From IMG/VR virus record IMGVR_UViG_3300016471_000834, positions 1-64,000 of that record: a stretch of DNA of 64,000 nt, one strand, 5' to 3'. The stretch is from a virus (lineage: Duplodnaviria > Caudoviricetes). Shown here piece by piece: positions 561-39,643 of this stretch (positions are counted from its first letter, which is position 1; each line of letters begins with the position of its first letter). The translations under genes were made by a program, and so were the position numbers. Under the pieces are notes generated by a model that saw only the letters and a program-made list of their open reading frames with translations, was not told the DNA's origin and made no database searches.

Positions 561-1130
561 TCACGCTGCCCGGGGTCCCGTTTTCTCCGGGAAACGCTTC
601 CGGACTGCTTCGTCCTCTACTATCCTCCGGTGCTCTTCCGGCCCTACATTCCAAAGTCCAAAGTTACCTCTCGCAGGCACATGCACATTGAGCTCGATCA
701 GTTCATCAAACTCGAGGCCAAAACGACGCGGATCGTGCCAGTCCTGCTCGATCTCCGCAGTCTCATCGGACGTCAGTGGGTCTCGAATGCCCGAGACGTG
801 GGCGAGAGCCACGATCTTCCCCAGATATGACTGAATGTCATGTGGCATAATATCAAGCCTTAGCCCGCGCTCGAGAGCCATCATCTGGATCTTCATGCAA
901 GAGCCGTCATCAGACATGCCTTCAATGTTCATCTTGCTGGAAAAGTGAATTGCCACCCACTGCCCGATGATCGAGTGCCAGCGGTCATTCCGGTTCTCGA
1001 TACGCTTCCCCAGGTGAAGGATGGCATATCCCCAGACGCCTCGAACCGTCAAGGCTTTTAGAATCTTCGGGTTGTGGGACTTCACCTTGCCTCTGTGCCC
1101 GCACTTTTCACACTCATAGGTCTGCGCCAT
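561..1130 (-). CDS. ASCH-domain protein with N-terminal Zn ribbon
   Basis: ALTVRGVWGYAILHLGKRIENR...GQWVAIH is the ASCH signature; CEKC at N-terminus. Confidence 0.8.
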   Translation of the reverse strand: MAQTYECEKCGHRGKVKSHNPKILKALTVRGVWGYAILHLGKRIENRNDRWHSIIGQWVAIHFSSKMNIEGMSDDGSCMKIQMMALERGLRLDIMPHDIQSYLGKIVALAHVSGIRDPLTSDETAEIEQDWHDPRRFGLEFDELIELNVHVPARGNFGLWNVGPEEHRRIVEDEAVRKRFPEKTGPRAA

Positions 1131-1145
1131 ATCTCCCTCCCGGCG

Positions 1146-2006
1146 TCAGAAGTTCTTAATCCAGCGGGGCTGCCTGAAGGCGTCCCGCAACAACAGCTTT
1201 TCCACATAACACTGTGCAATTCGCACCCGTATGGTCCCGTCAGGTTCGACCTCGAGCGGAATGTCCACCTCAGCGCCCAGGATACTCCCTCGACGGCTCA
1301 CAGGCCTGGGCTGATGCGGTTTCGGAGGCAACGCCCCAGAACGGATTGCCTCACTCATCCTGGCATGCTCATCAGCGACACGCTGTCGCCACTCATCCAT
1401 CAGCCGCTGGAAAGCAGGCTTCCGATACACCACCATCGCCGTGCATTCATCCGCTGGCGCCGGCTGGTCTGATGGGACATCATCGGGGACTTCCTCAGAT
1501 GCGCTGGTATCCATCCCCGTTTGCACAGTCTGCTGTGCAGCATCTCGCGAGCGTCGCTTGAGAGCCTTCATCCTCCTCGTGATGGCAATCACCGCGGCCC
1601 CTGCAAAGTCGTCTGGCGAGGACTTCGACAACGAGCTGATGATGCCGCGCTTGATTTCCAGCTCGAGGTGCCTGTAGACGTACAGCACCTGAGCACATCG
1701 AATCCGTGGGCCTACCAGCATCCCCTTCCCCGTATCGACCCGATAGGGGAAGATGCAGTCCAATGCCCAGGCGCAGACGCCCATCAGCTCACCGAACCAA
1801 TAGGCTCCGACATACACTTCCAGCTCATGTCCGGCTGTGAGCGGATCGACATCCTCAACGAACCGCTCATCGTTGGTCACGCTGTAGCGCCGGGCAATAT
1901 CGTCGGCACGACGCGAAGCCAGCTCGCGTTCATGCTCCGTAGAAGCGCCTCGAGCCAGGGCGTCCAGAGATCGTACCTGGCGGATCTTGTCCTCTCGCCT
2001 ACCCAT
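1146..2006 (-). CDS. DUF2786-type domain protein
   Basis: N-terminal KIRQVRSLDALARGASTEHERELASRRADDIARRY. Confidence 0.65.
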   Translation of the reverse strand: MGRREDKIRQVRSLDALARGASTEHERELASRRADDIARRYSVTNDERFVEDVDPLTAGHELEVYVGAYWFGELMGVCAWALDCIFPYRVDTGKGMLVGPRIRCAQVLYVYRHLELEIKRGIISSLSKSSPDDFAGAAVIAITRRMKALKRRSRDAAQQTVQTGMDTSASEEVPDDVPSDQPAPADECTAMVVYRKPAFQRLMDEWRQRVADEHARMSEAIRSGALPPKPHQPRPVSRRGSILGAEVDIPLEVEPDGTIRVRIAQCYVEKLLLRDAFRQPRWIKNF

Positions 2007-2823
2007 GCTTCAGCGCCCCCAACACCAAAAGCCACTGACTGCCTTCGGACATAGAGGCCACCCGCACAACAATGTCCGCCTCCTCTCTGGAAAGCGATCC
2101 GTGCTCCTTCAGCCGGAAGTTGCGTCTGGGGTGCTCTGCGATGAACATCTCCATCGTGCAGCTGAGGATATCAGCCTTCTTGACGAGGGCTGCAACGTCG
2201 GCCGGCACTGGCCACGCAACTCCATAGTGGCGGTGGAACTTCTCCTCCCAGGGGTGCTCGAGCGCCTTGAGGTCTGGACACGCCTGCTTCAAGCCTGCAT
2301 GCCATTCACCGATGAAGGCTTCATGGAGGTCGTGGCAGGCTCCGGCTCGCACAGTCTCCTTGGGGGCATTCCAGGAGCGCAAGATCTCCACGACCAGGGC
2401 CAAGTGAAGCAGAATCGAGCTGCGAACCACGCTATCGAACCGACTCTTTCGCACGAGGCCCTGGAAAACATCGTCGTCAACGATCGGCGTTCTGTCTGGG
2501 TCGTGATACCAGATGGCGTGTCCGCTCGCTGTGCATGACGGAATGACCTGCTTCGGAAGTTGCCAATAATGCTCGAGTACTGCATGGAGCAGGTCCGCCG
2601 CCCCCATATCTTGCCCTCCATGGCACAGCGGGCACATGAAGGCTTGCAGCCCGCCAACAGCGACACAGGCACGCGTGATGGGCTTCCCATTGTAGCCGCA
2701 AATGTTGCAGGTGTAGGTTCCCGCCGCTTCCAGCCGCTCCGCGATGCACGAGGCACAGGAACAGCCATGATCGAGTCTCTTGGCGAGGAAGCCATCAATC
2801 AGCTTCTGAAACGTAGCGGCCAT
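1999..2823 (-). CDS. HD-domain phosphohydrolase (YfbR-like) with N-terminal Zn finger
   Basis: H...CHDLHEAFIGE...LK...E...VKKAD pattern; N-terminal CxxC...CxxC. Confidence 0.7.
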   Translation of the reverse strand: MAATFQKLIDGFLAKRLDHGCSCASCIAERLEAAGTYTCNICGYNGKPITRACVAVGGLQAFMCPLCHGGQDMGAADLLHAVLEHYWQLPKQVIPSCTASGHAIWYHDPDRTPIVDDDVFQGLVRKSRFDSVVRSSILLHLALVVEILRSWNAPKETVRAGACHDLHEAFIGEWHAGLKQACPDLKALEHPWEEKFHRHYGVAWPVPADVAALVKKADILSCTMEMFIAEHPRRNFRLKEHGSLSREEADIVVRVASMSEGSQWLLVLGALKHG

Positions 2824-2857
2824 GTCTCACCTCCAATGCAAGCGTTGAGGATTTTAC

Positions 2858-5455
2858 TCAGAGACCAGTGACTCGCACCGTTCCACCACCAACATGCACA
2901 AGCACATCCGCCTGCTCCCAGACTTCCTGGTTGTGGCTGACGACCCAGCACTGATGGAAGCCGCCCAGAGACATGGCCCGGCGCAGCATGTTCATGAACA
3001 GAGGCCGGACGCTGTCGTCTAACCCATCAGTGGACTCATCGAAGTAGAGGGTCTCGAGCGGAGCTGCTGCTCGAGCCCGGTTGAAGACGCAGAGGGCCAG
3101 ACGAAGCGTGCTGTCGAAGCACACCAGCTCGCCCTTGCTTAGATCGGCCGGCAGCTTCATCTCGCCGTCCTTCGAGTCGAAGATCTCGAAGTCAAAGACC
3201 TCCTTCATCTCACCCCGGGCCGCTCGAGCCTTGTCCGTGTACGGGACCTGGGTCGTGAGTCGACAGACGAACCGGGTGCCGTAGAGCTCTCGGAGCAGCT
3301 CGTTGAGAATGGTGCTAACCTCCGGACCGGCAGCGTCCATCTTGAGGGCCTGGATGCCGTTCCGGCCCAGCCCCTTGGCCAGGAGAACCGCGCCGGACAC
3401 CTCCTCCGCTTTGCGCTCGAGACTGGTTCGGAGCGAGGGCAACTTTGCGATCTTGGCCCGCTTCTCCTTCAGCCGCCCGGAAAGCTCACCCTGGCGTAGT
3501 CGCAGGTCATCCAGCTCTTTTGAAGCGGCCTTCGCCTGCGCCTCGGCATCCGACCATGCCGATGTGGCTTGAGAGACTTCCTCACGAGCCTCGACAGGCT
3601 CCGGGGGTATGACCACCTCCTCAAGAGCCAGTCTGAACCGAGCAAGATCTGCCTCGAGCGCCTTCTGCCGCTGAAGCAGATCAGGTCGACGCGCTTCCGC
3701 GCCCAGCAACTTCTCCAGCGATCGACGGCGTGGGCCTACGTGCGCGAGTGCGGGCGAGAGGGACTGCAGCGCCGCCTGGTGTTGGGCAACATCCTCCGTG
3801 GCTCGAGCGATCTCCTCCTCAAGTTGTTTCGCTTCCTCCTTCTTCACGCCGTGGGCATGGTAGAGCCGCTGAAGCATGGCTTTCGCTTCATCGAGCTTCT
3901 CCACTCGAGCCAGAGCCGCGGTGAGCTTCCGCTCCTCCGGCTCGAGCCCGGAGATGGCACTGTCCAGGCTGGCGATCCGCTGACCGAGTTCATCAGCCTT
4001 CGTCTGGGTCTGTCGGAAGTGCAGCCCGGCTTTGGATACATCCGCAGCCTGGGCCTCTGCGGCTTCCACCTCCGCTTCGAATGTCGGGATGTCAGCCTGG
4101 GCCTTCTGCGCCTTGGTAAGAAACTGGCAGGCTGCACAGTCGTGTCCTTCCAGGACAGCACCACCGCATGGAACGCCTGCGAGGAGGCTGGCATTGGTCC
4201 GCGCAGTTTCGAGCGCGAAGCGAGCCGACTGCACACGGCGCTGTGCGTTCTGCTCGTTTGTGGCCTGCTGCTGACGTTCGTTGCGGATGGCCGTTACCAT
4301 CTCCTGATGGCGGGTTCGGAGCCGAGTCCGCTCCTCACGAGCTTCAGCCAACGGCTCGAGCTTCTGGCGCAACTCCGGAATCTTTTCAGCGTCGGCCTCG
4401 ATCTGGCGCACGTAATCCCGCTGGCTCTTCCCATCCGTTACGATGGCTGCGATGTCGGTATTGAGTCCCTCGAGCTGCTTCTTGATCCGGTTCAGATGTG
4501 ACTGTGCAGCCTGGATCTGCTGTCGGAGACCTGTCTCCTGTTTGGCGTCTTCCTCGGCCTGTGCCGCTTCAGCGCGGGTCTGCGCCGCCGACTCAATGAC
4601 CGTAGCCATTTCCGCGAGGGATGTCTCGATGTCCGTCAGATCGCCCTCAGTCCGGGCAATGTCCCCCTGGAGTTCCGACTTCCGCCTCGTCGCCGATCGC
4701 AAAGCGGTCTCGAGTGTGTGCAACGCCCCAGCCTTGCGCTCCTTCGCTTGCAACAGCTGATTCGCCTGGGCCTGCACTCCTGCAAGGTGCAGTTGCTGGG
4801 CCTGAAGGTCCACATCGTGGTCGGCAGCCTCGCGCTCGAGCTGCTGAATCTCAATCTCCACGGCTTCGAGGGAGGCGACCTCGAGCCGCATAGTCTGGAT
4901 GGAGCCAGCCAACTTATCGGCCTCCGCCTGTGCCATCTCGCACAGGATCTCGTATTCCCGGAGACCTAGCATGAAGCTGAAGAGGCTCTTGCGCTCTGCC
5001 TGCTTCATTGACATCAGCCCCGCCTGCTGACGCAGCCGGGTGCTCTCTCCGGTGTAGCAGCTGGTGCTGATGACGGACATCGGCGGATAGATCTTGCCGA
5101 TGGCCTGGTCATAATCGGGCAGCTTCCCGGAGCTGGCCGGCGCCCCGTCCACCCAGAGAAAAGCCTCTTCTTTGCCCTTCGTGGCGTCCATCAGGATCTG
5201 GTGGCGGATAGTCCGTCCCCCGTAGGAGTAGATGGCCTCGAGCTCGCTTGAGCGGCTCGTTGCCCACTTCTTGAGGGGGCCGCCGCGGATCGATCTCTCA
5301 AGCACCCCGGGCACCATGCAGTCGAGTAGCGTCGTCTTACCGGCGCCGTTGGGGCCGATGACGGCGAAGATCTTTCCAGCGGGCACATTCTCCAGATCAA
5401 GAGTTGCCATCTGGTATGTCGTAATGCCGGCCACTTTCAGCCTGAGAAGTCGCAT
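2858..5455 (-). CDS. sbcC: SbcC/Rad50-like SMC ATPase
   Basis: Walker A GPNGAGKTT, long coiled coil, central Cys hook (CGG...CAAC), signature LSKGE, Walker B LYFDE, H-loop VVSH; RBS before ATG 5455. Confidence 0.9.
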   Translation of the reverse strand: MRLLRLKVAGITTYQMATLDLENVPAGKIFAVIGPNGAGKTTLLDCMVPGVLERSIRGGPLKKWATSRSSELEAIYSYGGRTIRHQILMDATKGKEEAFLWVDGAPASSGKLPDYDQAIGKIYPPMSVISTSCYTGESTRLRQQAGLMSMKQAERKSLFSFMLGLREYEILCEMAQAEADKLAGSIQTMRLEVASLEAVEIEIQQLEREAADHDVDLQAQQLHLAGVQAQANQLLQAKERKAGALHTLETALRSATRRKSELQGDIARTEGDLTDIETSLAEMATVIESAAQTRAEAAQAEEDAKQETGLRQQIQAAQSHLNRIKKQLEGLNTDIAAIVTDGKSQRDYVRQIEADAEKIPELRQKLEPLAEAREERTRLRTRHQEMVTAIRNERQQQATNEQNAQRRVQSARFALETARTNASLLAGVPCGGAVLEGHDCAACQFLTKAQKAQADIPTFEAEVEAAEAQAADVSKAGLHFRQTQTKADELGQRIASLDSAISGLEPEERKLTAALARVEKLDEAKAMLQRLYHAHGVKKEEAKQLEEEIARATEDVAQHQAALQSLSPALAHVGPRRRSLEKLLGAEARRPDLLQRQKALEADLARFRLALEEVVIPPEPVEAREEVSQATSAWSDAEAQAKAASKELDDLRLRQGELSGRLKEKRAKIAKLPSLRTSLERKAEEVSGAVLLAKGLGRNGIQALKMDAAGPEVSTILNELLRELYGTRFVCRLTTQVPYTDKARAARGEMKEVFDFEIFDSKDGEMKLPADLSKGELVCFDSTLRLALCVFNRARAAAPLETLYFDESTDGLDDSVRPLFMNMLRRAMSLGGFHQCWVVSHNQEVWEQADVLVHVGGGTVRVTGL

Positions 5456-5498
5456 ACGTCTCTCCTGCAATCCATTCTGTTCATCTTCGCATGGGAAT

Positions 5499-5525
5499 GC
5501 CCCAGGGGGCCGAGCCCCCCAGGGC
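5499..5525 (-). other. 12-bp GC hairpin between sbcD and sbcC (RNA stability/processing element)
   Basis: GCCCTGGGGGGC-TCG-GCCCCCTGGGGC with two G-U pairs; no U-tract. Confidence 0.5.
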
Positions 5526-5540
5526 TATCGGGACCGTTTA

Positions 5541-6887
5541 CTACAGCACTGCCCCGGCCTGAAGCCGGTCTGCCTGCAACCTCGTCAACAATTCCAGAGC
5601 TCGAGCCTGCTCCCCAGCTGAGGGGACCGGCTGAAGGGTCCGCCAGTATGCCCCCAACTCCTCATCGACAGACGTCGCAGTCGCCACCTCCGGCGCCCGC
5701 ATGCGCAGCGCCACCTCAATGTCCTTGTCCTCGCGGATTCGGACAGCTCCCAGGTCATGCACCTTGGTCCGCTCCTCCGACCAGGGGCAGGATGTTCTGT
5801 GGGCTTCGGGCACCTTGAGCCGCATGCGAACTTCTGCCCCCTTCACCAGCGCGAAGAGCTGAGGATCGGGGTACTTCCGCCAGCCCACGCCCTCAAGCAC
5901 CTCGCCCCATTCGTACTCGAGGGTCAAGAATCGCCGACACCCGGTTGGGAACTGCTGCCAGCGCATGGGAATACATCCACGATCGCCGTCGTAGCCCTTG
6001 ACCGCATGCTCTTTGAGCCCGTAGGTGATGCGCTCTCCGAACGGCCAGTGAATGATCCCAGGCGCCCACGTTGATCGAGGCGGCTCGAACTCAATAGCTG
6101 TCCAGGTCGGAACACGCTCTGTCTCCCCATGGTCCTGGAACCACTGAGCCCCGGCATAAAAGCAGCGGTCTACGAGTTCTTGGGCCAAGTGCACGTGGCC
6201 AAAGGCACCGTAGTCCACCCTGAGCAGATCCAGGTCCCCCTTGGTGATCTGGATGTCCCCGCCCTGCAGAATCTCCCCTCCGGCCATCATTGATCCGCCC
6301 ACCTGAATGTGCGAGGCCAGGATCTGGGGTTCGCCCGGGCGTTCGGCTCGAGCCTGCTGGATAAGCACTGCCCAGGTCATCAAGAGCGAGCGGAGCGACT
6401 GCTCCACGGTCACATGAGCCTGTTCTGCACCGATGTCAGCGACACCCAGCAGATAGCGCTTCGTCGGCCATGGAAGCGGGTATACCGTCACGGCTCCGCG
6501 CTTCGTGTAGATCTGCTCGCCCATCGGTGACGGCCGGTCAAAGACGTAAATGGGCCACTGCCGGTCGAGCCGGGCCAGGTTGTCAAGTTCCTGATCCGGA
6601 TCGTGGTTCCCATAGACGATGACGACAGGGCCGCTCGAGGCCATCTTCATGACGGCCTCTTCCATGAGCTGGCGCTCGCGGAAGTTGGAGCGCTGCCCAG
6701 CGGTGTGCTTGTAGATGTCTCCGGTGATGAACCAGAGATCGGGGTCGAGGTGCTCGAGCGCCTGCATGACGATCCGGTCCAGGTCCGCCCGCTGGTCCTC
6801 AAAGCGAGCGTCATCCGTGATGTGCAGGTCCGAGATATGAACGCAGGTGAGGCCCTGCGGTATGAGAATGCGCTGTCCCATGCTCAC
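5541..6887 (-). CDS. sbcD: SbcD/Mre11-like metallophosphoesterase nuclease
   Basis: HISDLH, TGDIY, YGNHD, GHVH motifs; adjacent to SbcC. Confidence 0.9.
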   Translation of the reverse strand: MSMGQRILIPQGLTCVHISDLHITDDARFEDQRADLDRIVMQALEHLDPDLWFITGDIYKHTAGQRSNFRERQLMEEAVMKMASSGPVVIVYGNHDPDQELDNLARLDRQWPIYVFDRPSPMGEQIYTKRGAVTVYPLPWPTKRYLLGVADIGAEQAHVTVEQSLRSLLMTWAVLIQQARAERPGEPQILASHIQVGGSMMAGGEILQGGDIQITKGDLDLLRVDYGAFGHVHLAQELVDRCFYAGAQWFQDHGETERVPTWTAIEFEPPRSTWAPGIIHWPFGERITYGLKEHAVKGYDGDRGCIPMRWQQFPTGCRRFLTLEYEWGEVLEGVGWRKYPDPQLFALVKGAEVRMRLKVPEAHRTSCPWSEERTKVHDLGAVRIREDKDIEVALRMRAPEVATATSVDEELGAYWRTLQPVPSAGEQARALELLTRLQADRLQAGAVL

Positions 6888-8113
6888 CTCTGCACCTTGG
6901 GCTTGCCTGCCTGGTGCTGACGACAGAACAGCTTCCCATACTGCCGGAAGCTATAGTCGGCCACGCGGGGATCGAGCTCCTGGCCGCACTCTTCGCACTT
7001 ATCCATGAGGCGCTGCTGCTCCTCGAATGGATCTTCACCGGTCTGTCCCTCCGCCCCCTGCTGGCTCGAGTCAGACAAACCCTGGAACATGGTCTGCTGC
7101 CCCTGGCCACCCGATGTTTCCTGAGTCGTCTGCTGGGGACGGCTCTGCTGCGGGGGAGGCGGGCCATAGTCGTCGTCATCGTCCATGTACGGGGGCGGTT
7201 CCTGGCCGGCGCCTAACGCACGCGGAGCGGGAGGGCCCGGCAGATACTGAGTGCCGAGATATCCAACACCCTGGGTCGGCAATGCCGGCGCTTTGGGACC
7301 GCCGTATACCTGATCGACAATGCCAAGCGCGTTTGCCGCCACCATCTTGGCGACCTCTGGATTGCTCATATCGAGCTGCGGGACGAGCACCACAAGCACG
7401 AAGGGCTTCAGCGCCTCCTGGCGGGTATAGGACCGGATGCCAAAGTGCTCGCGCAGAGCCCTGAGCTTCGCTTTGGTCTCCGCGTGGGCGAGGATGTGAT
7501 ACCGCAGGCTGTAGATCTGCTCTTCCGTCATCCGTTCCTTCTTCTTCTGGTAGATCTTGAAGAGCTGATCGCTGCCCTCTCGAAGGTCCACTTCCTTTTC
7601 TCCCGTGATGGTTTTGATCCGCCCGTCTGTATTGAGGACGCGGCCAACGGCCCGGTACATGCAATAGTGCGGATCCATTCCGTTGTCGACCCGGCCACAT
7701 TCAGCAGAGATCCAGCTCACAGCTCCCAGGTCCTGGAGCTTGTTCAGGCTGGACTTCGTGAAAGCCAGGTTGCCCCCTTGAACGATGTAGAAGTCACCAT
7801 TGCTTTTCGCCTTTTCCTGGTCTTCCGTGAAGGTGCCATTGAAGGACACCATTTTGAAGTCCAGCGCGAAACCGGCCGGCACCGCTGAGAGGCTCATGGC
7901 GCCGATGATGTTGAAGTTCTGTCGCAGGATATCCAACTTCCCGGCCACCGCTCCAAACTTGTCAGCGGTGATGACGCCCGTGCCAAAGCCCGCCTGTTGA
8001 AGCGTGACGACCGTCGTGGTCTGCCGCTCCTGCTGCCCGCGAGGCTGTTGATAGTTGCCGCCCCGCTGCCCCTGCCATTGCTGGCCCCTGTTGTAATTTC
8101 CGTTGCCGCTCAT
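6884..8113 (-). CDS. Putative single-strand annealing protein with Q/G-rich tails and C-terminal Zn ribbon
   Basis: Next to SbcCD; core ending AHAETKAKLRALR; disordered linker; CEECG...FCRQH. Confidence 0.4.
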   Translation of the reverse strand: MSGNGNYNRGQQWQGQRGGNYQQPRGQQERQTTTVVTLQQAGFGTGVITADKFGAVAGKLDILRQNFNIIGAMSLSAVPAGFALDFKMVSFNGTFTEDQEKAKSNGDFYIVQGGNLAFTKSSLNKLQDLGAVSWISAECGRVDNGMDPHYCMYRAVGRVLNTDGRIKTITGEKEVDLREGSDQLFKIYQKKKERMTEEQIYSLRYHILAHAETKAKLRALREHFGIRSYTRQEALKPFVLVVLVPQLDMSNPEVAKMVAANALGIVDQVYGGPKAPALPTQGVGYLGTQYLPGPPAPRALGAGQEPPPYMDDDDDYGPPPPQQSRPQQTTQETSGGQGQQTMFQGLSDSSQQGAEGQTGEDPFEEQQRLMDKCEECGQELDPRVADYSFRQYGKLFCRQHQAGKPKVQR

Positions 8114-34916: not shown

Positions 34917-36212
34917 TTAGAACTCCTCAACCGGGATGACCACGCCGTCCTGTAGAACCATCGCGTCGGGGTTGAAGAGAATGACGTCCATCTCCCAATA
35001 AACGTCGAAGCGAATCCGCTCGAACTCCTGCTCAAACTTCCGGTACACTCGGACGCCACCGTCCCCGGACCGGGTGCACATGACGAAGCAGATGTTCTTG
35101 GGGTTCGTCAGAATGATGGACGTGCAGTCCACCACGTCAAGCGTGTAGTCGCTCGCGGTCGTGCTGATGGTCGACTGGCCCAGGGTGCCCGACGCGGTCA
35201 CGTACAGGTGGCTGGACTCTGCCGTCACGCTCAGCGTCTCGCTCTTGCCGGTGGCCACGCAGGTGAGCTTGACCTGGCGTCCGACGTGAGTGCTGTTGTA
35301 CCCGCCGAAGAGCGTATCCACCTGGGCCTTGACCTTGCCGGAGCTGTTGGTCACGGCGTCCGCTGCGGACGTGCTCTTGTTCAGGGTGCTGAAGCCCTGG
35401 GTGTTCGGAAGCTGGGGCACCAGCAATGGCGCGATACCCTGGGGATTGTACCGAAGCCGCTGCTCGGTGAGGCCCCGCAGAGAGCCAGCGTTACCCTGAG
35501 CGGCGAATTCGTTGACCTCCCAGGTGAACTCCTGGTCGATTCCGGGGTGGACCATGAACCGCAGATTCGGATCGTCGACATACTCGACCGGCATCTTCTG
35601 CTGGATGGCCTTCCACACGTTCCTGGCGTAGGTCTTCCCGTAGTCCGTGGTCCGCCGAATGGCCTTCGACCGGGCCTGAACCAGCACACCATCGGACCCA
35701 ACCAGGAGGCGATTCTCCCTGGTGCTCAGATCGGTGATGGACTTGTCGCCCCGGATGATGACCTTACCGAGCGAGTTGGCGAGCTTCCGAGCAAACAGGG
35801 TGACCACGGCCTGCTGGAAGTTCTGCGTCCCCGACGCCCGTGCCTCGCTGATGTCCTCGAGGGTCAGGTAGAAGGTGGACTGGTACTTCGTACAGGAATA
35901 GGCCCGACGATCCATGCTTGGGCTCGAGGTGATGGTCTTGCCGTCGTTCTCCTTGACGGCCTCCGCCACATCGCCGCTGATGTCTACGGTCGGAATCTCG
36001 CCAGACCGCTGCTCGCGCAGCCGATAGCTGACCTGGCTCAGCCACTGCACATTCGCCGTCGCCAGCACGACGAGAGATTCGATCTGGGGCCGGTTCATAA
36101 ACTGACCGACCTGCACGGACGATGTCGTGATGACGCTCGGCTCCGCAGCCTTCAGCGCATCATGCCCGGCAAGCGTGGCTCCGGCGCTGTTCAAAAGCTC
36201 CTGGTTATTCAA
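34917..36212 (-). CDS. Major capsid protein (HK97 fold, P2/XkdG-like) with ~80-aa insertion
   Basis: GQFMNRPQIESL; LANSLGKVIIRGD; IILTNPKNI; RIRFDVYWEMD. Confidence 0.9.
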   Translation of the reverse strand: MNNQELLNSAGATLAGHDALKAAEPSVITTSSVQVGQFMNRPQIESLVVLATANVQWLSQVSYRLREQRSGEIPTVDISGDVAEAVKENDGKTITSSPSMDRRAYSCTKYQSTFYLTLEDISEARASGTQNFQQAVVTLFARKLANSLGKVIIRGDKSITDLSTRENRLLVGSDGVLVQARSKAIRRTTDYGKTYARNVWKAIQQKMPVEYVDDPNLRFMVHPGIDQEFTWEVNEFAAQGNAGSLRGLTEQRLRYNPQGIAPLLVPQLPNTQGFSTLNKSTSAADAVTNSSGKVKAQVDTLFGGYNSTHVGRQVKLTCVATGKSETLSVTAESSHLYVTASGTLGQSTISTTASDYTLDVVDCTSIILTNPKNICFVMCTRSGDGGVRVYRKFEQEFERIRFDVYWEMDVILFNPDAMVLQDGVVIPVEEF

Positions 36213-36250: not shown

Positions 36251-37963
36251 TTACCGAGTGGCCGTCAGACCGGTGAGGTCGAAAACGGACCCGGCGAAAA
36301 TGTCATTGCCCTTGACCGCAGACTCTCCACCGCCACCACCCGGCAGTGAAACTGGGGGCCGCGGAGCCTCCCTGAGCTGCTTCAGTTCGGCGGTAACCTG
36401 ATCGAGCTGAGCCTTCATCGCCTCCACGCCCTGGCCCCCCTGTCCATGGGTCTGAGCCTGATCGATGGCGGCCTTGAGTGCGGCAAGCTGCTCGGGCTTT
36501 GCCGCCTTGAGGGCTGGCACGATGGTGTTTGTGTCCAGAGCCCCCATGAGCCCGCGCTGGAACATTCCCAGGAGGTCTGGCGGAGTGCCATTCAGGTTCT
36601 GCCCAGAAAGCTGCCCTGCCAGAGCGTCCTGAATCATGGACGGCTGTGGCTCGCCCTGCACAGCGGCCTTCATGGTGGACTGGTAAACCTCAAGCCCCTT
36701 GGCCGCCAGTTCCGCGTCGGTCGCCTTGGGGTTCAGGGTCTTAAGAACTTCAATCGCACCCTTGGCGGCAGCCTGAGAATACTGGACTGCCTGCTCGGGG
36801 CTCATCGGCTGCTTCGCCATGTTAACACCCTCCGACGCCGATGGCGTCTGGTTGTAAGACTTGGCCGCAGGGGAACACTTCCCCTTGTCGGCTCCGGTCG
36901 CGGTTTCCCCTCCAATGCTCTCATCCTCAGAGGAAGAGGAAGTACCATCCACCGCCAACAGCTCATCGAGAAGAGAGAGCACCATCTCGAGGCCAGTCTT
37001 CATATCGGCTCCCTTGGACTTCGCTTCATCGAGCTTCGCCCGGGTGGCCTTCGAAATCGTTCTGCCAGCCTTCATCACTTCCATCGAGGTGGAAGCGGAC
37101 ATCCGGCTGGATGCGCACATCGTTGCGCAGGTGAGGCAGGTGCTTGCACACGCCTTGGCCTCAGCGAGATCAGACCCTGCACAGGCCATTGCACAGGCTC
37201 GACAGGCCATCTCGCACATCACGAGGGCCATCGGAGCAAACGACGAACTCCTATTGCAGAGTTGAATGCAAAGGGAACAGATGTCAACACATTCTTGGCA
37301 GGCGCGAATGCAAGCACCCATATCCGCGACGTTTGCCTGGTTCATGCAGGCGGAGATACACAACTGGCATGCTCCGATACACGCCTGGCAACAGGCAACG
37401 ATGGAGGCCGTATCCATCGTCATCGCCTTGATAGCCTTCGCGGCAGCGGCCAAAGCCTTCCGCACAGTCGCATTTTTGGCTGCAGCCAGCGGAGCAACGA
37501 TAGACATCAGGTGACGATGGAACTGAGTGAGAGCAGCGTCTACTGCAGCGACTTTGTCGGGAACAGCCTCATCTTCGAGGATGTTCCGGATCACGTCCTG
37601 CAAAGCGTCTGTCGACCGCCAGAGGCCGTTGTTCAGCGTGTTGACGGCGAGAGCCGCATCAAAAGTGGTAGCGTCCACCGACTTCGTTGCACCTGCGAGG
37701 AACGCTTCACCGAGCGCGCCACCGCCGAACCACTCAGCCGGGCTGATCATCCGCTGGTACCAAGCGAGCTTCACGCCAGGAGTGAACGTGATGGGCGCGG
37801 AGGTATCGGACTTCGCCGTGACGGTCCTGCGGTTGGCGCCGGCCGGCACAAGAGAGACGAACGCCCGGTCTCCGTCCATCTGAGGATGGGACATGATGGT
37901 GAACATCGGCTTACCAGCCCCATCACGGGGGAGTTTGTCCAGCATTTCGGCGTTGTCAGGCAT
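36251..37963 (-). CDS. Head scaffold-like protein with inserted 20-Cys four-helix-bundle (copper storage protein/DUF326-like) domain
   Basis: FVSLVPAGANRR and KAGRTIS motifs typical of XkdF-associated scaffolds flank CCQACIGACQLCISAC...CASTCLTCATMC. Confidence 0.8.
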   Translation of the reverse strand: MPDNAEMLDKLPRDGAGKPMFTIMSHPQMDGDRAFVSLVPAGANRRTVTAKSDTSAPITFTPGVKLAWYQRMISPAEWFGGGALGEAFLAGATKSVDATTFDAALAVNTLNNGLWRSTDALQDVIRNILEDEAVPDKVAAVDAALTQFHRHLMSIVAPLAAAKNATVRKALAAAAKAIKAMTMDTASIVACCQACIGACQLCISACMNQANVADMGACIRACQECVDICSLCIQLCNRSSSFAPMALVMCEMACRACAMACAGSDLAEAKACASTCLTCATMCASSRMSASTSMEVMKAGRTISKATRAKLDEAKSKGADMKTGLEMVLSLLDELLAVDGTSSSSEDESIGGETATGADKGKCSPAAKSYNQTPSASEGVNMAKQPMSPEQAVQYSQAAAKGAIEVLKTLNPKATDAELAAKGLEVYQSTMKAAVQGEPQPSMIQDALAGQLSGQNLNGTPPDLLGMFQRGLMGALDTNTIVPALKAAKPEQLAALKAAIDQAQTHGQGGQGVEAMKAQLDQVTAELKQLREAPRPPVSLPGGGGGESAVKGNDIFAGSVFDLTGLTATR

Positions 37964-38531
37964 GTGCCTCTCCTCCGGTCCGTACAGTCACAAGGGTTTT
38001 GTTGACGAGGGTCTCGAAGGATACTGCCTCGAGCACACCGGAGTCAACCATGAGCCATTCGGGCGTGCCCGGCTGAATCTTCACGACCAGCACCCAGCAG
38101 CCAGGAAAAAAATTGGGGGAGGCGATCTCCGGAGTGTTCACGAAGCTCTGCACGACCTTCAACCCCTCTCGAGGCTGCTTGTCGTGAAAGGCGTCCAACT
38201 TCCGGCTGTGGACCAAGAAGTCCTCGGCCATCTTGATGAGGTCATCTTGCAGCATGACCTCCCCCTGGCTGTCGATTGGATCGAGCGCCAGTCGGGCAAG
38301 GTCAGGCTGTGCAGCTATGACCTGGCGATAAGCGTCGCGCTGTGTCAGCACAGTATTCGCGGTCATCAGTGCTTCGACCTGGGTCCAGAAGTCCGAGAAC
38401 GCCTTGGGATCGAACGGGAGGTATACTTCAGCGTAGATAAGTCCTTCCTTGAGGACACCGCCATCAGTGCCCTTCCGAACTCGAGCGATCTTGACTTGCG
38501 CTCTGCTCACGCGGTCGACAGCCTCAGCCAC
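37956..38531 (-). CDS. XkdF-like prohead serine protease
   Basis: GLIYAEVYLP...DSQGEVM...HD...VVQSF...WVLVVKI...W..V.SG...S. Confidence 0.8.
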   Translation of the reverse strand: MAEAVDRVSRAQVKIARVRKGTDGGVLKEGLIYAEVYLPFDPKAFSDFWTQVEALMTANTVLTQRDAYRQVIAAQPDLARLALDPIDSQGEVMLQDDLIKMAEDFLVHSRKLDAFHDKQPREGLKVVQSFVNTPEIASPNFFPGCWVLVVKIQPGTPEWLMVDSGVLEAVSFETLVNKTLVTVRTGGEAHA

Positions 38532-38686: not shown

Positions 38687-39643
38687 TTAGCGGATGAGGA
38701 TCTGCGAGCGACAGAACATGTGCTGGGGGGGCATGATGACACCCATCGCAACGAGCTCAGGAGCGCTCAAGAGCGCTCCCGTCGCGTCCGTGATGTCGGA
38801 AACCTTGACCCAGGGGGCGATGGCCTTCCACTCCTCCGGGTCCTGGGCCTGAAGTAGACGATCGCGAAGGTCTATGGCGTGTTCGACTCGAAAGATGGTC
38901 CCGTTCAGCGCCTCGCACACGGGAGACGTGCGCTCGTCCATCGGGTTGACGTACTCGTACTCTTCCACCTCGATGTTGACCATCGTGGAGAGGGACCCGA
39001 ACGTGCGCGCCCGGGTCGTGATGACGTGGCTGAACCCCTTCCAGTAGCTCTCACTCCGCTTGAAGACGGCGTTCTTGAACATGCTGGCCAGCTTCTCGCC
39101 AGCTGCTTCAGCGCCATATCCCTTCTCGAGCACCATCTCGCGAAGCACATCGTCAATTACCCCCTGGGGAATGACGTCGCCGTAGTGCTTCCCGACCCAA
39201 TAGATTCCATTCCGGTTCAACCCGGCGATAGCGTCGGCATCGGCCACCCCGAAGGACATGCTGACGTTCGCCGCCGTGGACATCTCCTTGAGGCCCAGCT
39301 TGTACGAGCCCCGAAGCGCTGGCAGCAGCAGATCCTTGTCATCGTCGGTCAGTTGTATGCCAGCGGCTATCAGCGCTTCGCGTAGCGAAAGCATTTCCCC
39401 GGTAACGGCGGCAGCTCTCTCTGCGATGGTTCCAGGCCGATCCGAGATGGCAGCAATCTTCCTGATGGCTGCTCCGATGAGGGGGCCGGCTGCCGTGGAG
39501 AACGCATCGATCAGCAGCTTACTCAGGCGAGATGTCAGGACGGTGTAGCTGGGGGGGGAGGCTTTGATCCCTGCGACTGCGCACATAAGTCCGTGCGCGT
39601 CATCAGCTGCCTGTACCAAAGGACTGTCCAGGTCAAAACACAC
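38687..39643 (-). CDS. Head morphogenesis protein (MuF/SPP1 gp7-like)
   Basis: YEYVNPMDERTSPVCEALNG...PPQHMFCRS. Confidence 0.88.
   Translation of the reverse strand: MCFDLDSPLVQAADDAHGLMCAVAGIKASPPSYTVLTSRLSKLLIDAFSTAAGPLIGAAIRKIAAISDRPGTIAERAAAVTGEMLSLREALIAAGIQLTDDDKDLLLPALRGSYKLGLKEMSTAANVSMSFGVADADAIAGLNRNGIYWVGKHYGDVIPQGVIDDVLREMVLEKGYGAEAAGEKLASMFKNAVFKRSESYWKGFSHVITTRARTFGSLSTMVNIEVEEYEYVNPMDERTSPVCEALNGTIFRVEHAIDLRDRLLQAQDPEEWKAIAPWVKVSDITDATGALLSAPELVAMGVIMPPQHMFCRSQILIR

Follow-up and report, generated by a model that had tools for sequence, protein, structure and literature searches.

A copper-storage-type four-helix bundle embedded in the head scaffolding-type protein of an uncultured freshwater phage

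The DNA considered here (the window) is a stretch of 64,000 nucleotides, positions 1 to 64,000 of the IMG/VR virus record IMGVR_UViG_3300016471_000834. That record is an 87.8-kb virus contig, rated 86% complete, from an uncultured freshwater phage; the window is co-oriented phage genome throughout. On its minus strand, at 36251..37963, lies a gene for a head scaffolding-type protein of 570 residues (P0001), within which is embedded a Cys-rich domain of the copper storage protein type (Csp, or DUF326). It is almost certain that a Csp-family domain is fused here into a head scaffold-type protein. What the domain would do there is more tentative.

The gene is defined by its open reading frame (ORF) and translation, and the open frame across it is continuous for 578 codons. 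A strong Shine-Dalgarno sequence, GGAGGAGAGG (37967..37976, minus strand), can be read three nucleotides 5' of the ATG at 37963-37961, and the start overlaps the stop of the upstream protease gene by eight nucleotides. The product is rich in Ala (99 of 570 residues) and holds only 4 His. On the opposite strand, the frame at 36446-38005 (519 codons), antisense to the scaffold gene, gives an Arg/Gly/His-rich product with no matches; it was set aside as a shadow frame of a GC-rich gene, without support.

Alignment to the closest homologue of the protein (P0004), together with the residues invariant in the family, marks residues 1-176 (37436..37963, minus strand, as are all features of the gene) as the conserved N-terminal domain of the scaffold family. 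There follows an insertion of 121 residues (177-297; 37073..37435), seen as a clean gap in that homologue and holding the Csp-type bundle. Within it, AlphaFold2 (AF2), Foldseek and phmmer together place four Cys-lined helices at residues 185-207, 212-237, 243-262 and 267-287 (37103..37411), which carry the 20 Cys. Directly after the insert comes a KAGRTIS motif (298-304; 37052..37072), recognized from the family consensus KAGxVISxAN and from a match to phrog_3017. Alignment to the same homologue then gives a second variable linker, acidic and Ser-rich (305-385; 36809..37051), and, with the family consensus, a conserved C-terminal scaffold region (386-570; 36254..36808). In this last region K408, K432, K486 and K551 are conserved, as is a C-terminal GS(A/V)F motif.

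A preliminary description of this DNA, made from its letters, had drawn attention to 20 Cys in helical register inside the scaffold gene, and the motifs that it quoted and the positions that it gave are correct. Exactly 20 Cys lie within residues 191-283 (37115-37393), with spacings in four blocks of 1,3,4,3,4 / 4,3,4,3,4 / 4,3,4 / 4,3,4. Every other stop-free stretch of 93 residues in the six frames of the window holds 11 Cys or fewer. When a 100-residue segment containing these Cys was used as a phmmer query against all PDB sequences, the matches were only to proteins of the Csp1, Csp3 and Ccsp types, including uncharacterized structural-genomics relatives, and to engineered fusions that contain one. 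The best match was the Bacillus subtilis protein BsCsp3 (5fig), with an E-value of 2.3e-10 over 97 gapless residues at about 32% identity. In this alignment, 16 of the 20 Cys of the segment face a Cys.

The same assignment emerges from a HMMER search of a library of 1.84 billion representative proteins. Here, about 100 short DUF326-type proteins match residues ~185-290, with E-values from 1e-10 to 1e-4, and Pfam assigns DUF326 to 62 of the 71 that were aligned. Fourteen columns of the family are at least 90% Cys, and the segment has a Cys in each; its remaining six Cys (191, 192, 206, 222, 232 and 236) stand at variable or lineage-specific positions. The 21-position repeat model of DUF326 gives 17 bits for the segment by itself, below the cut-off of 20.4, and 22.9 bits when the repeats are summed over the frame, above it. 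The family also appears as a precomputed annotation (PF03860) on a truncated relative of the protein (P0003). The Csp1 model TIGR04401, at 20.1 bits against a cut-off of 100, scores too low for membership of that subfamily. Because the domain is internal, the segment has, of course, no signal peptide.

Among the library matches, the longer DUF326 proteins carry no phage domains. One of these, a cellular protein of 245 residues (P0072), has a DUF326 bundle joined to a MerR-family DNA-binding domain and is possibly a metal-sensing regulator with a Csp-type sensor domain.

The predicted structure agrees with the sequence. An AF2 model of the segment, made from an alignment of 72 rows, is a four-helix bundle with a predicted local distance difference test score (pLDDT) of 93 and a predicted template-modelling score (pTM) of 0.86. 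Its top Foldseek match is Cu(I)-loaded BsCsp3 (6wkt), with template-modelling (TM) scores of 0.82/0.94 and a root-mean-square deviation of 1.1 A over 103 columns. In the Foldseek ranking, roughly the first 20 PDB entries are all Csp1, Csp3 or Ccsp, with TM scores up to 0.83/0.95. Both the likeness to Csp/DUF326 bundles and the superposition on a Csp3 that the preliminary description had called for are therefore confirmed, in so far as a model can do so.

That description had also expected the Cys to line the core of the bundle, rather than to lie elsewhere. All 20 fall within the four predicted helices, and in each helix they cluster on one face: the helical-wheel resultants are 0.83-0.93, against ~0.33-0.42 for random placement (p from 0.0002 to 0.007). 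The 20 Cys thiolates are thus predicted to line the core of the bundle.

A model of four copies of the domain scores 0.76, with contacts agreeing to at least 81% and pLDDT of at least 82; the best control scores 0.11. Of 30 proteins whose solved structure is a pair of one chain, 20 reach the mark used with this score, as does 1 of 23 whose solved structure is a single chain. The four-copy score may reflect memory, because Csp tetramers have already been solved.

The same library supplied 46 homologues of the scaffold protein, of 306-487 residues, found by a full HMMER scan; an alignment of 44 members holds the protein described here and 43 of these. The preliminary description had suggested a search for homologues with and without the insert. 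The 46 that were found carry only 0-4 Cys each. At the slot of the insert, the 43 aligned homologues have 1-31 residues, with a median of 9, against 121 here. The closest of them, P0004 (452 residues), comes from a 3.3-kb ENA contig. Its identity is 67% over residues 1-163 and 44% over residues 374-536, and it shows a clean gap opposite residues ~177-297. The motifs that bracket the insert are V-x-K-A-(E/D)-D, which contains K163, and KAG(R/K)(V/I)(I/L)S-x-x-N, which starts with K298.

Four Cys of P0004, at 226-243, belong to a zinc-ribbon (PF13240; residues ~224-245) in the neighboring variable linker. This implies that the scaffold linkers of the family tolerate small metal-binding domains. 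The insert itself has a GC content of 0.57, and 0.67 at third codon positions (GC3), values like those elsewhere in the gene. Its flanks hold no noteworthy direct or inverted repeats, and there is thus no sign of a mobile cassette. The Csp domain in a head scaffold is a new domain architecture, composed of two known kinds of part.

The preliminary description had been aware of no such fusion, and none appeared in GenBank phages or in the literature that was searched, where no phage-encoded Csp of any sort was found. The string "DUF326" does occur in phage papers; on inspection, it is part of DUF3263, DUF3268 or DUF3269. In a set of 50,697 GenBank phage records, there was no DNA match to the head module and no protein match to the N-terminal domain. 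Two records in that database, both under the name "Acinetobacter phage MD-2021a" (L002, CAKLQH020000032.1, and CAKLQF020000006.1), were its sole "phage" matches to the Csp segment. These are mislabelled bacterial contigs: they carry a tRNA and xseA, and their free DUF326 gene has cueR, a P-type ATPase and a copper chaperone as neighbors.

Relatives with the insert were likewise not found in viral or metagenome contigs when the scaffold protein, the capsid protein and alignments served as queries. When longer fusions of the Csp segment were sought by a word-based protein search, the window's own protein was the sole result, and a protein search returned no shorter fragments of residues 150-330. 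Among predicted viral structures, two free-standing Csp-like proteins were found, one of 116 residues from an uncultured marine phage and one of 193 residues from an environmental Megaviridae record (BFVD A0A8D9FR86 and A0A5J6VLP3).

The neighborhood is that of phage head genes, in the order Mu F-like minor head protein, XkdF-type protease, scaffold-type protein and major capsid protein, with a head-tail adaptor and a neck protein farther on. All lie on the minus strand. The minor head protein (318 residues; 38687..39643) matches several minor-head-protein PHROGs, and PF04233 at 29.1 bits, just below the cut-off of 29.6. The XkdF-type prohead serine protease (191 residues; 37956..38531) matches PF14550 at 30.3 bits, against a cut-off of 24, and phrog_15223 with an E-value of 6.7e-17. 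The major capsid protein (431 residues; 34917..36212) matches phrog_1623 (E 4.3e-21) and, weakly, Phage_capsid. The scaffold-type gene thus stands between the XkdF-type protease and the major capsid protein. No tRNA gene was found in the 64-kb window.

The matching order of head genes recurs in a relative, a 58.5-kb contig (L003) that is probably phage or prophage. Its positions 846-7836 encode a MuF-domain protein of 911 residues, an XkdF protease, a Cys-free scaffold homologue of 429 residues and a capsid protein. The contig was binned with a metagenome-assembled genome of an uncultured member of the Victivallales. This is, at most, a weak and unreliable hint at a host, and then only for the wider scaffold family.

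The protein is best labelled a head scaffolding protein, a label that is accepted here from the position of the gene, the composition of its product and weak PHROG matches. The last of these are to phrog_3017, a family of "head maturation protease" fusions, in the part that follows the protease; 26 of the 44 aligned family members match there. A Pfam scan of the protein found no enzymatic domain. The prediction that it is helical is of low confidence (pLDDT 45.6 in a single-sequence AF2 model of the whole protein). A profile of the scaffold family, run against PDB sequences, returned coiled-coil noise and no solved homologue; a look-up of residues 1-176 in the ESM Atlas gave scores below 0.9, to unrelated PhoX clusters.

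Several residues near the N-terminus are invariant in all 44 aligned members of the family. These are S37, V39, G42, A43 and N44; F101 is also invariant. The first five fall in the stretch AFVSLVPAGANRR (residues 34-46; 37825-37863, minus strand). We take this stretch to resemble the "SLV..PAN" strand that ends HK97-type prohead proteases, and the upstream protease has a similar stretch of its own, AVSFETLVNK. The stretch in the scaffold may be a docking element or a duplicated one.

The fused protein is also found outside this record. JGI/IMG, Logan and ENA together supply three contigs with the exact 570-residue sequence, of which the longest measures 99.7 kb. In a second freshwater sample (X2), Logan contigs span both junctions of the insert with zero differences. 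Shorter contigs, 96-100% identical to parts of the head module, come from separate studies of soil (X3, 2023), wetland (X4, 2025) and sludge (X5, 2025). These matches in several unrelated metagenomes imply that the phage, or its close kin, is widespread. No RNA data set was listed among the sequencing runs that hold the module. The soil read departs from the window exactly at 37076, where the insert has its C-terminal edge, with 10 codons visible.

A read from the sludge sample falls within the Csp domain itself, at about 84% nucleotide identity. With its listed differences applied, it translates as NSAFAPMACAMCEMACRACANACAASDMECCKVCASTCLTCAT. It keeps all seven of the Cys that it covers and adds three, and two of those added fall at Cys columns of the family, 247 (34% Cys) and 269 (79% Cys). 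Its 10 substitutions avoid all seven of the covered Cys, a pattern that is not significant by itself (p about 0.13, by hand calculation). The read is unlikely to be bacterial, because no library protein is nearly as close to the domain. One read with weak statistics thus points to a diverged relative that also has a Csp domain, with its thiolates possibly under selection.

One further relative, a 60.5-kb ENA contig (P0003/P0153), has lost one nucleotide at window positions 36685-36687, in a run of three T on the minus strand at V425-Y426. The loss splits the scaffold gene into a protein of 430 residues, with the N-terminal domain, the Csp domain and the linker and ending in EVTSPP, and an ORF of 140 residues that starts at M431, just ahead of the conserved K432. 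The contigs of the second freshwater sample break beside this run, at 36679-36685, which suggests a real variant in the population or a recurrent sequencing error.

Sites at which the scaffold might be cut were sought in its conserved Lys residues. The preliminary description had noted that the bundle is flanked by IKAM and MKAG, and both are indeed present. The second fared well in comparison with the family: K298, in MKAG, is Lys in 73% of the family and Arg in 14%. K179, in IKAM, lies in sequence specific to the insert and is not conserved; the conserved Lys upstream of the insert is K163 (37475..37477), which is Lys in 80% of the family. K163 and K298 are accordingly the candidate protease sites on the two sides. 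Seven Lys are at least 73% conserved (K137, K163, K298, K408, K432, K486 and K551). Most of these have a hydrophobic residue before them and Ala, Gly, Thr or Asn after.

A similar site had been proposed at the N-terminus of the major capsid protein. Here, ALK/AAEP aligns with VRK/ALTP of the capsid protein of L003, which is 40% identical. The aligned Lys-Ala falls exactly where conservation starts, after N-terminal stretches of unequal length. A pair shared with one relative gives the proposal weak support, and the capsid site is possibly a maturation site.

What is known of Csps suggests what such a domain might do. Csp3 bundles have 18-19 Cys per monomer, all directed toward the core, and take up about one Cu(I) for each, or about 80 per tetramer (PMC5171941). 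The affinity of Csps for Cu(I) is about 1e17 M-1. In classical Csp3 proteins, three conserved His stand at the bundle's mouth, in the loop between helices alpha3 and alpha4 (His84, His86 and His88 of BsCsp3; PMC5171941). A subgroup of Csp3 proteins without these His still binds Cu(I), and the His motif is not needed for rapid uptake or release (PMC10155185).

The mechanism that we favor begins with the scaffold. As part of it, the bundle would be made in large amounts late in infection and would be carried into every procapsid, in the stoichiometry of the scaffold, by the capsid-binding regions of the scaffold. Bundles would associate in fours, probably as tetramers, like free Csps. In the procapsid, or already in the cytoplasm, each would bind Cu(I), at about one ion to a Cys if Csp3 is a guide, and so up to about 20. 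The XkdF-type protease would most likely cut at the conserved Lys-(Ala/Gly/Asn) sites, K163 and K298, which would release a folded fragment of 135 residues and about 14 kDa. The freed fragment would be a capsid-targeted, high-capacity sink for Cu(I), presumably to the benefit of the phage.

To this whole chain, including the encapsidated Cu(I) cargo, we assign a probability of roughly 0.45. Its parts are not equally firm. By analogy with the Csps, the domain probably binds Cu(I) or another thiophilic metal. That it acts as encapsidated cargo, and not only as a cytoplasmic or structural module, falls slightly short of an even chance. Cargo targeted to the capsid is favored because a role in the cytoplasm would need no more than a free gene, because the aligned homologues assemble without the domain, and because all of the core thiolates have been kept.

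Several considerations weigh against the proposal. The scaffold label comes from gene position, composition and weak PHROG matches, with no solved homologue, and the cleavage sites are read from the conservation of motifs. The domain has none of the three His that mark the mouth of classical Csp3 proteins, and the 87.8-kb record contains no HMA copper chaperone or other copper gene. Free cytosolic copper is normally very scarce, which means that the bundle could remain largely empty. Fragments of scaffolds usually exit the capsid. Last, 43 of the 44 aligned members do without the domain and this lineage alone has it, so that it may be recent and dispensable.

An alternative, unlikely on present evidence, makes the domain part of the assembly process. 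Tetramers of the bundle would cluster four scaffold chains, and thereby nucleate the procapsid or set its size, with metal irrelevant or merely stabilizing. The scaffolding proteins of other phages do act as oligomers; the four-copy model predicts the needed association, though it may reflect memory of solved tetramers; and P0004 has a different small Cys-based domain in the next linker. However, a module with this purpose would not require all 14 of the core Cys that are invariant in the Csp family, and six more besides, nor would it lead one to expect a gain of Cys at canonical positions in a diverged relative. The other 43 aligned scaffolds, moreover, function with no domain at this slot.

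Unlikely to about the same degree is a purely cytoplasmic, auxiliary metabolic role, in which the scaffold gene is simply a vehicle for high expression. Late in infection, the freed bundle would buffer or hoard the copper of the host, whether to shield replication from copper stress or to supply copper enzymes, and would have no part within the virion. Cellular Csp3 proteins do both, protecting against copper toxicity and storing copper for cuproenzymes (PMC5171941, PMC9484137). The stand-alone Csp-like proteins in the two viral metagenomic records show that the fold exists as a free viral gene, and the near-identical reads come from soil, wetland and sludge, where the copper load can be high. 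For such a role, of course, a free-standing gene would do. The placement of the domain, in frame and in the middle of a protein of the capsid interior, suggests instead that targeting matters. Further, prohead proteases of the HK97 type normally act within the assembled procapsid, which would put the release of the bundle there.

What the bundle binds need not be copper. It might be Zn, Cd, Ag or Hg, or else sulfane sulfur or an iron-sulfur-type cluster, or the bundle might be a thiol redox buffer of the capsid interior; this is very unlikely. The thought arises because the classical mouth with its His is missing, the loop being GSDLAEAK in place of the KHDHDH of BsCsp3, and because the mouth is rich in Met instead (e.g., M216). 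DUF326 proteins have also been described as cadmium-binding (PMC6727835). Nevertheless, each solved protein that closely matches the bundle in structure is a Cu(I) protein, and the Csp3 subgroup without His binds Cu(I) normally (PMC10155185). A Met at the mouth, moreover, serves Csp1 as a ligand of Cu(I): M216 aligns with L35 of BsCsp3, which is the counterpart of the copper ligand Met48 of MtCsp1 (PMC5171941).

An assembly chimera or a mis-called frame, which the preliminary description had raised and which a metagenomic contig with one frameshifted relative might suggest, can be dismissed as exceedingly improbable: three sources each have a contig with the exact protein, independently assembled contigs from another sample run across the two junctions and show no difference, and both junctions are in frame within one continuous 578-codon frame, with GC and GC3 that match the flanks.

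Encapsidated Cu(I) cargo, the reading that we prefer, has a more far-reaching form, which is quite unlikely. In this form, the scaffold-borne Csp tetramers would make the procapsid a metal-loaded nanocompartment, and the bundles would remain beside the DNA and pass into the next host on ejection. Were this so, each head would receive several thousand Cu(I) with its several hundred copies of the scaffold. Once excised, the bundles could not escape because of their size, and would give the next host a copper payload or a ready-made sink. The phage would then be a living intermediate between phage scaffolds and the cargo loading of encapsulins.

Csps have so far been cellular proteins, involved in the supply of copper in methanotrophs, in the laccase of the B. 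subtilis spore coat and in copper tolerance. Phage scaffolds have been regarded as pure assembly chaperones. If a scaffold carries a bundle that holds Cu(I), then phages use the scaffold as a vehicle to deliver functional cargo, something done artificially in P22 nanotechnology and naturally by encapsulins with ferritin-like proteins. Protease, scaffold and capsid protein make a three-gene system in which the packaging of metal, and the role of copper in the stability of the virion or in early infection, could be tested. The same system could show how cargo loading of the encapsulin type arises from scaffolds. Even if the domain is a dispensable passenger, it is the first of the Csp family to be seen in a protein of virion assembly.

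Among known systems, the closest is BsCsp3 itself (YhjQ; 5FIG for the apo form and 6WKT for the Cu(I)-bound form). The two share the length of the bundle, the lack of a signal peptide and 19-20 Cys, and the phage bundle may, on the four-copy model, also associate in fours. BsCsp3 is, however, a free cytosolic protein of 108 residues, whereas the phage bundle is a domain inside a head protein of 570. The phage bundle is also without the motif of His84, His86 and His88, has six extra or variable Cys and is only about 32% identical. RkCsp3, a non-classical Csp3 from Methylocystis sp. Rockwell (6ZIF; PMC10155185), resembles it in having no His motif at the mouth while still belonging to the family. 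Unlike the phage bundle, RkCsp3 occurs free in the cell and also lacks three Cys at the mouth, and the phage model fits 6zif less well than it fits BsCsp3 (TM 0.54).

Other likenesses are to systems that load a protein shell. The internal proteins of phage T4 have capsid-targeting sequences that are removed by the prohead protease. Each of them has a gene of its own and a short targeting peptide at the N-terminus, and they do not store metal; in both respects they differ from the protein described here. The cargo of encapsulins includes ferritin-like proteins, four-helix bundles for metal storage that a terminal targeting peptide brings inside a shell of the HK97 fold. Here, too, a metal-storage four-helix bundle is joined to a sequence that would direct it into an HK97-fold shell. 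The likeness is one of description, and homology is not claimed. The phage shell, unlike that of an encapsulin, is a tailed-phage procapsid that is to be filled with DNA; the carrier is a scaffold; and the metal is presumably Cu(I) held by thiolates rather than mineralized iron. The nearest parallel for the manner of loading is engineered: in scaffold-cargo fusions of P22, a foreign protein enters the procapsid joined to the scaffold (PMC9962691), as the Csp bundle would here, except that the P22 fusions are man-made.

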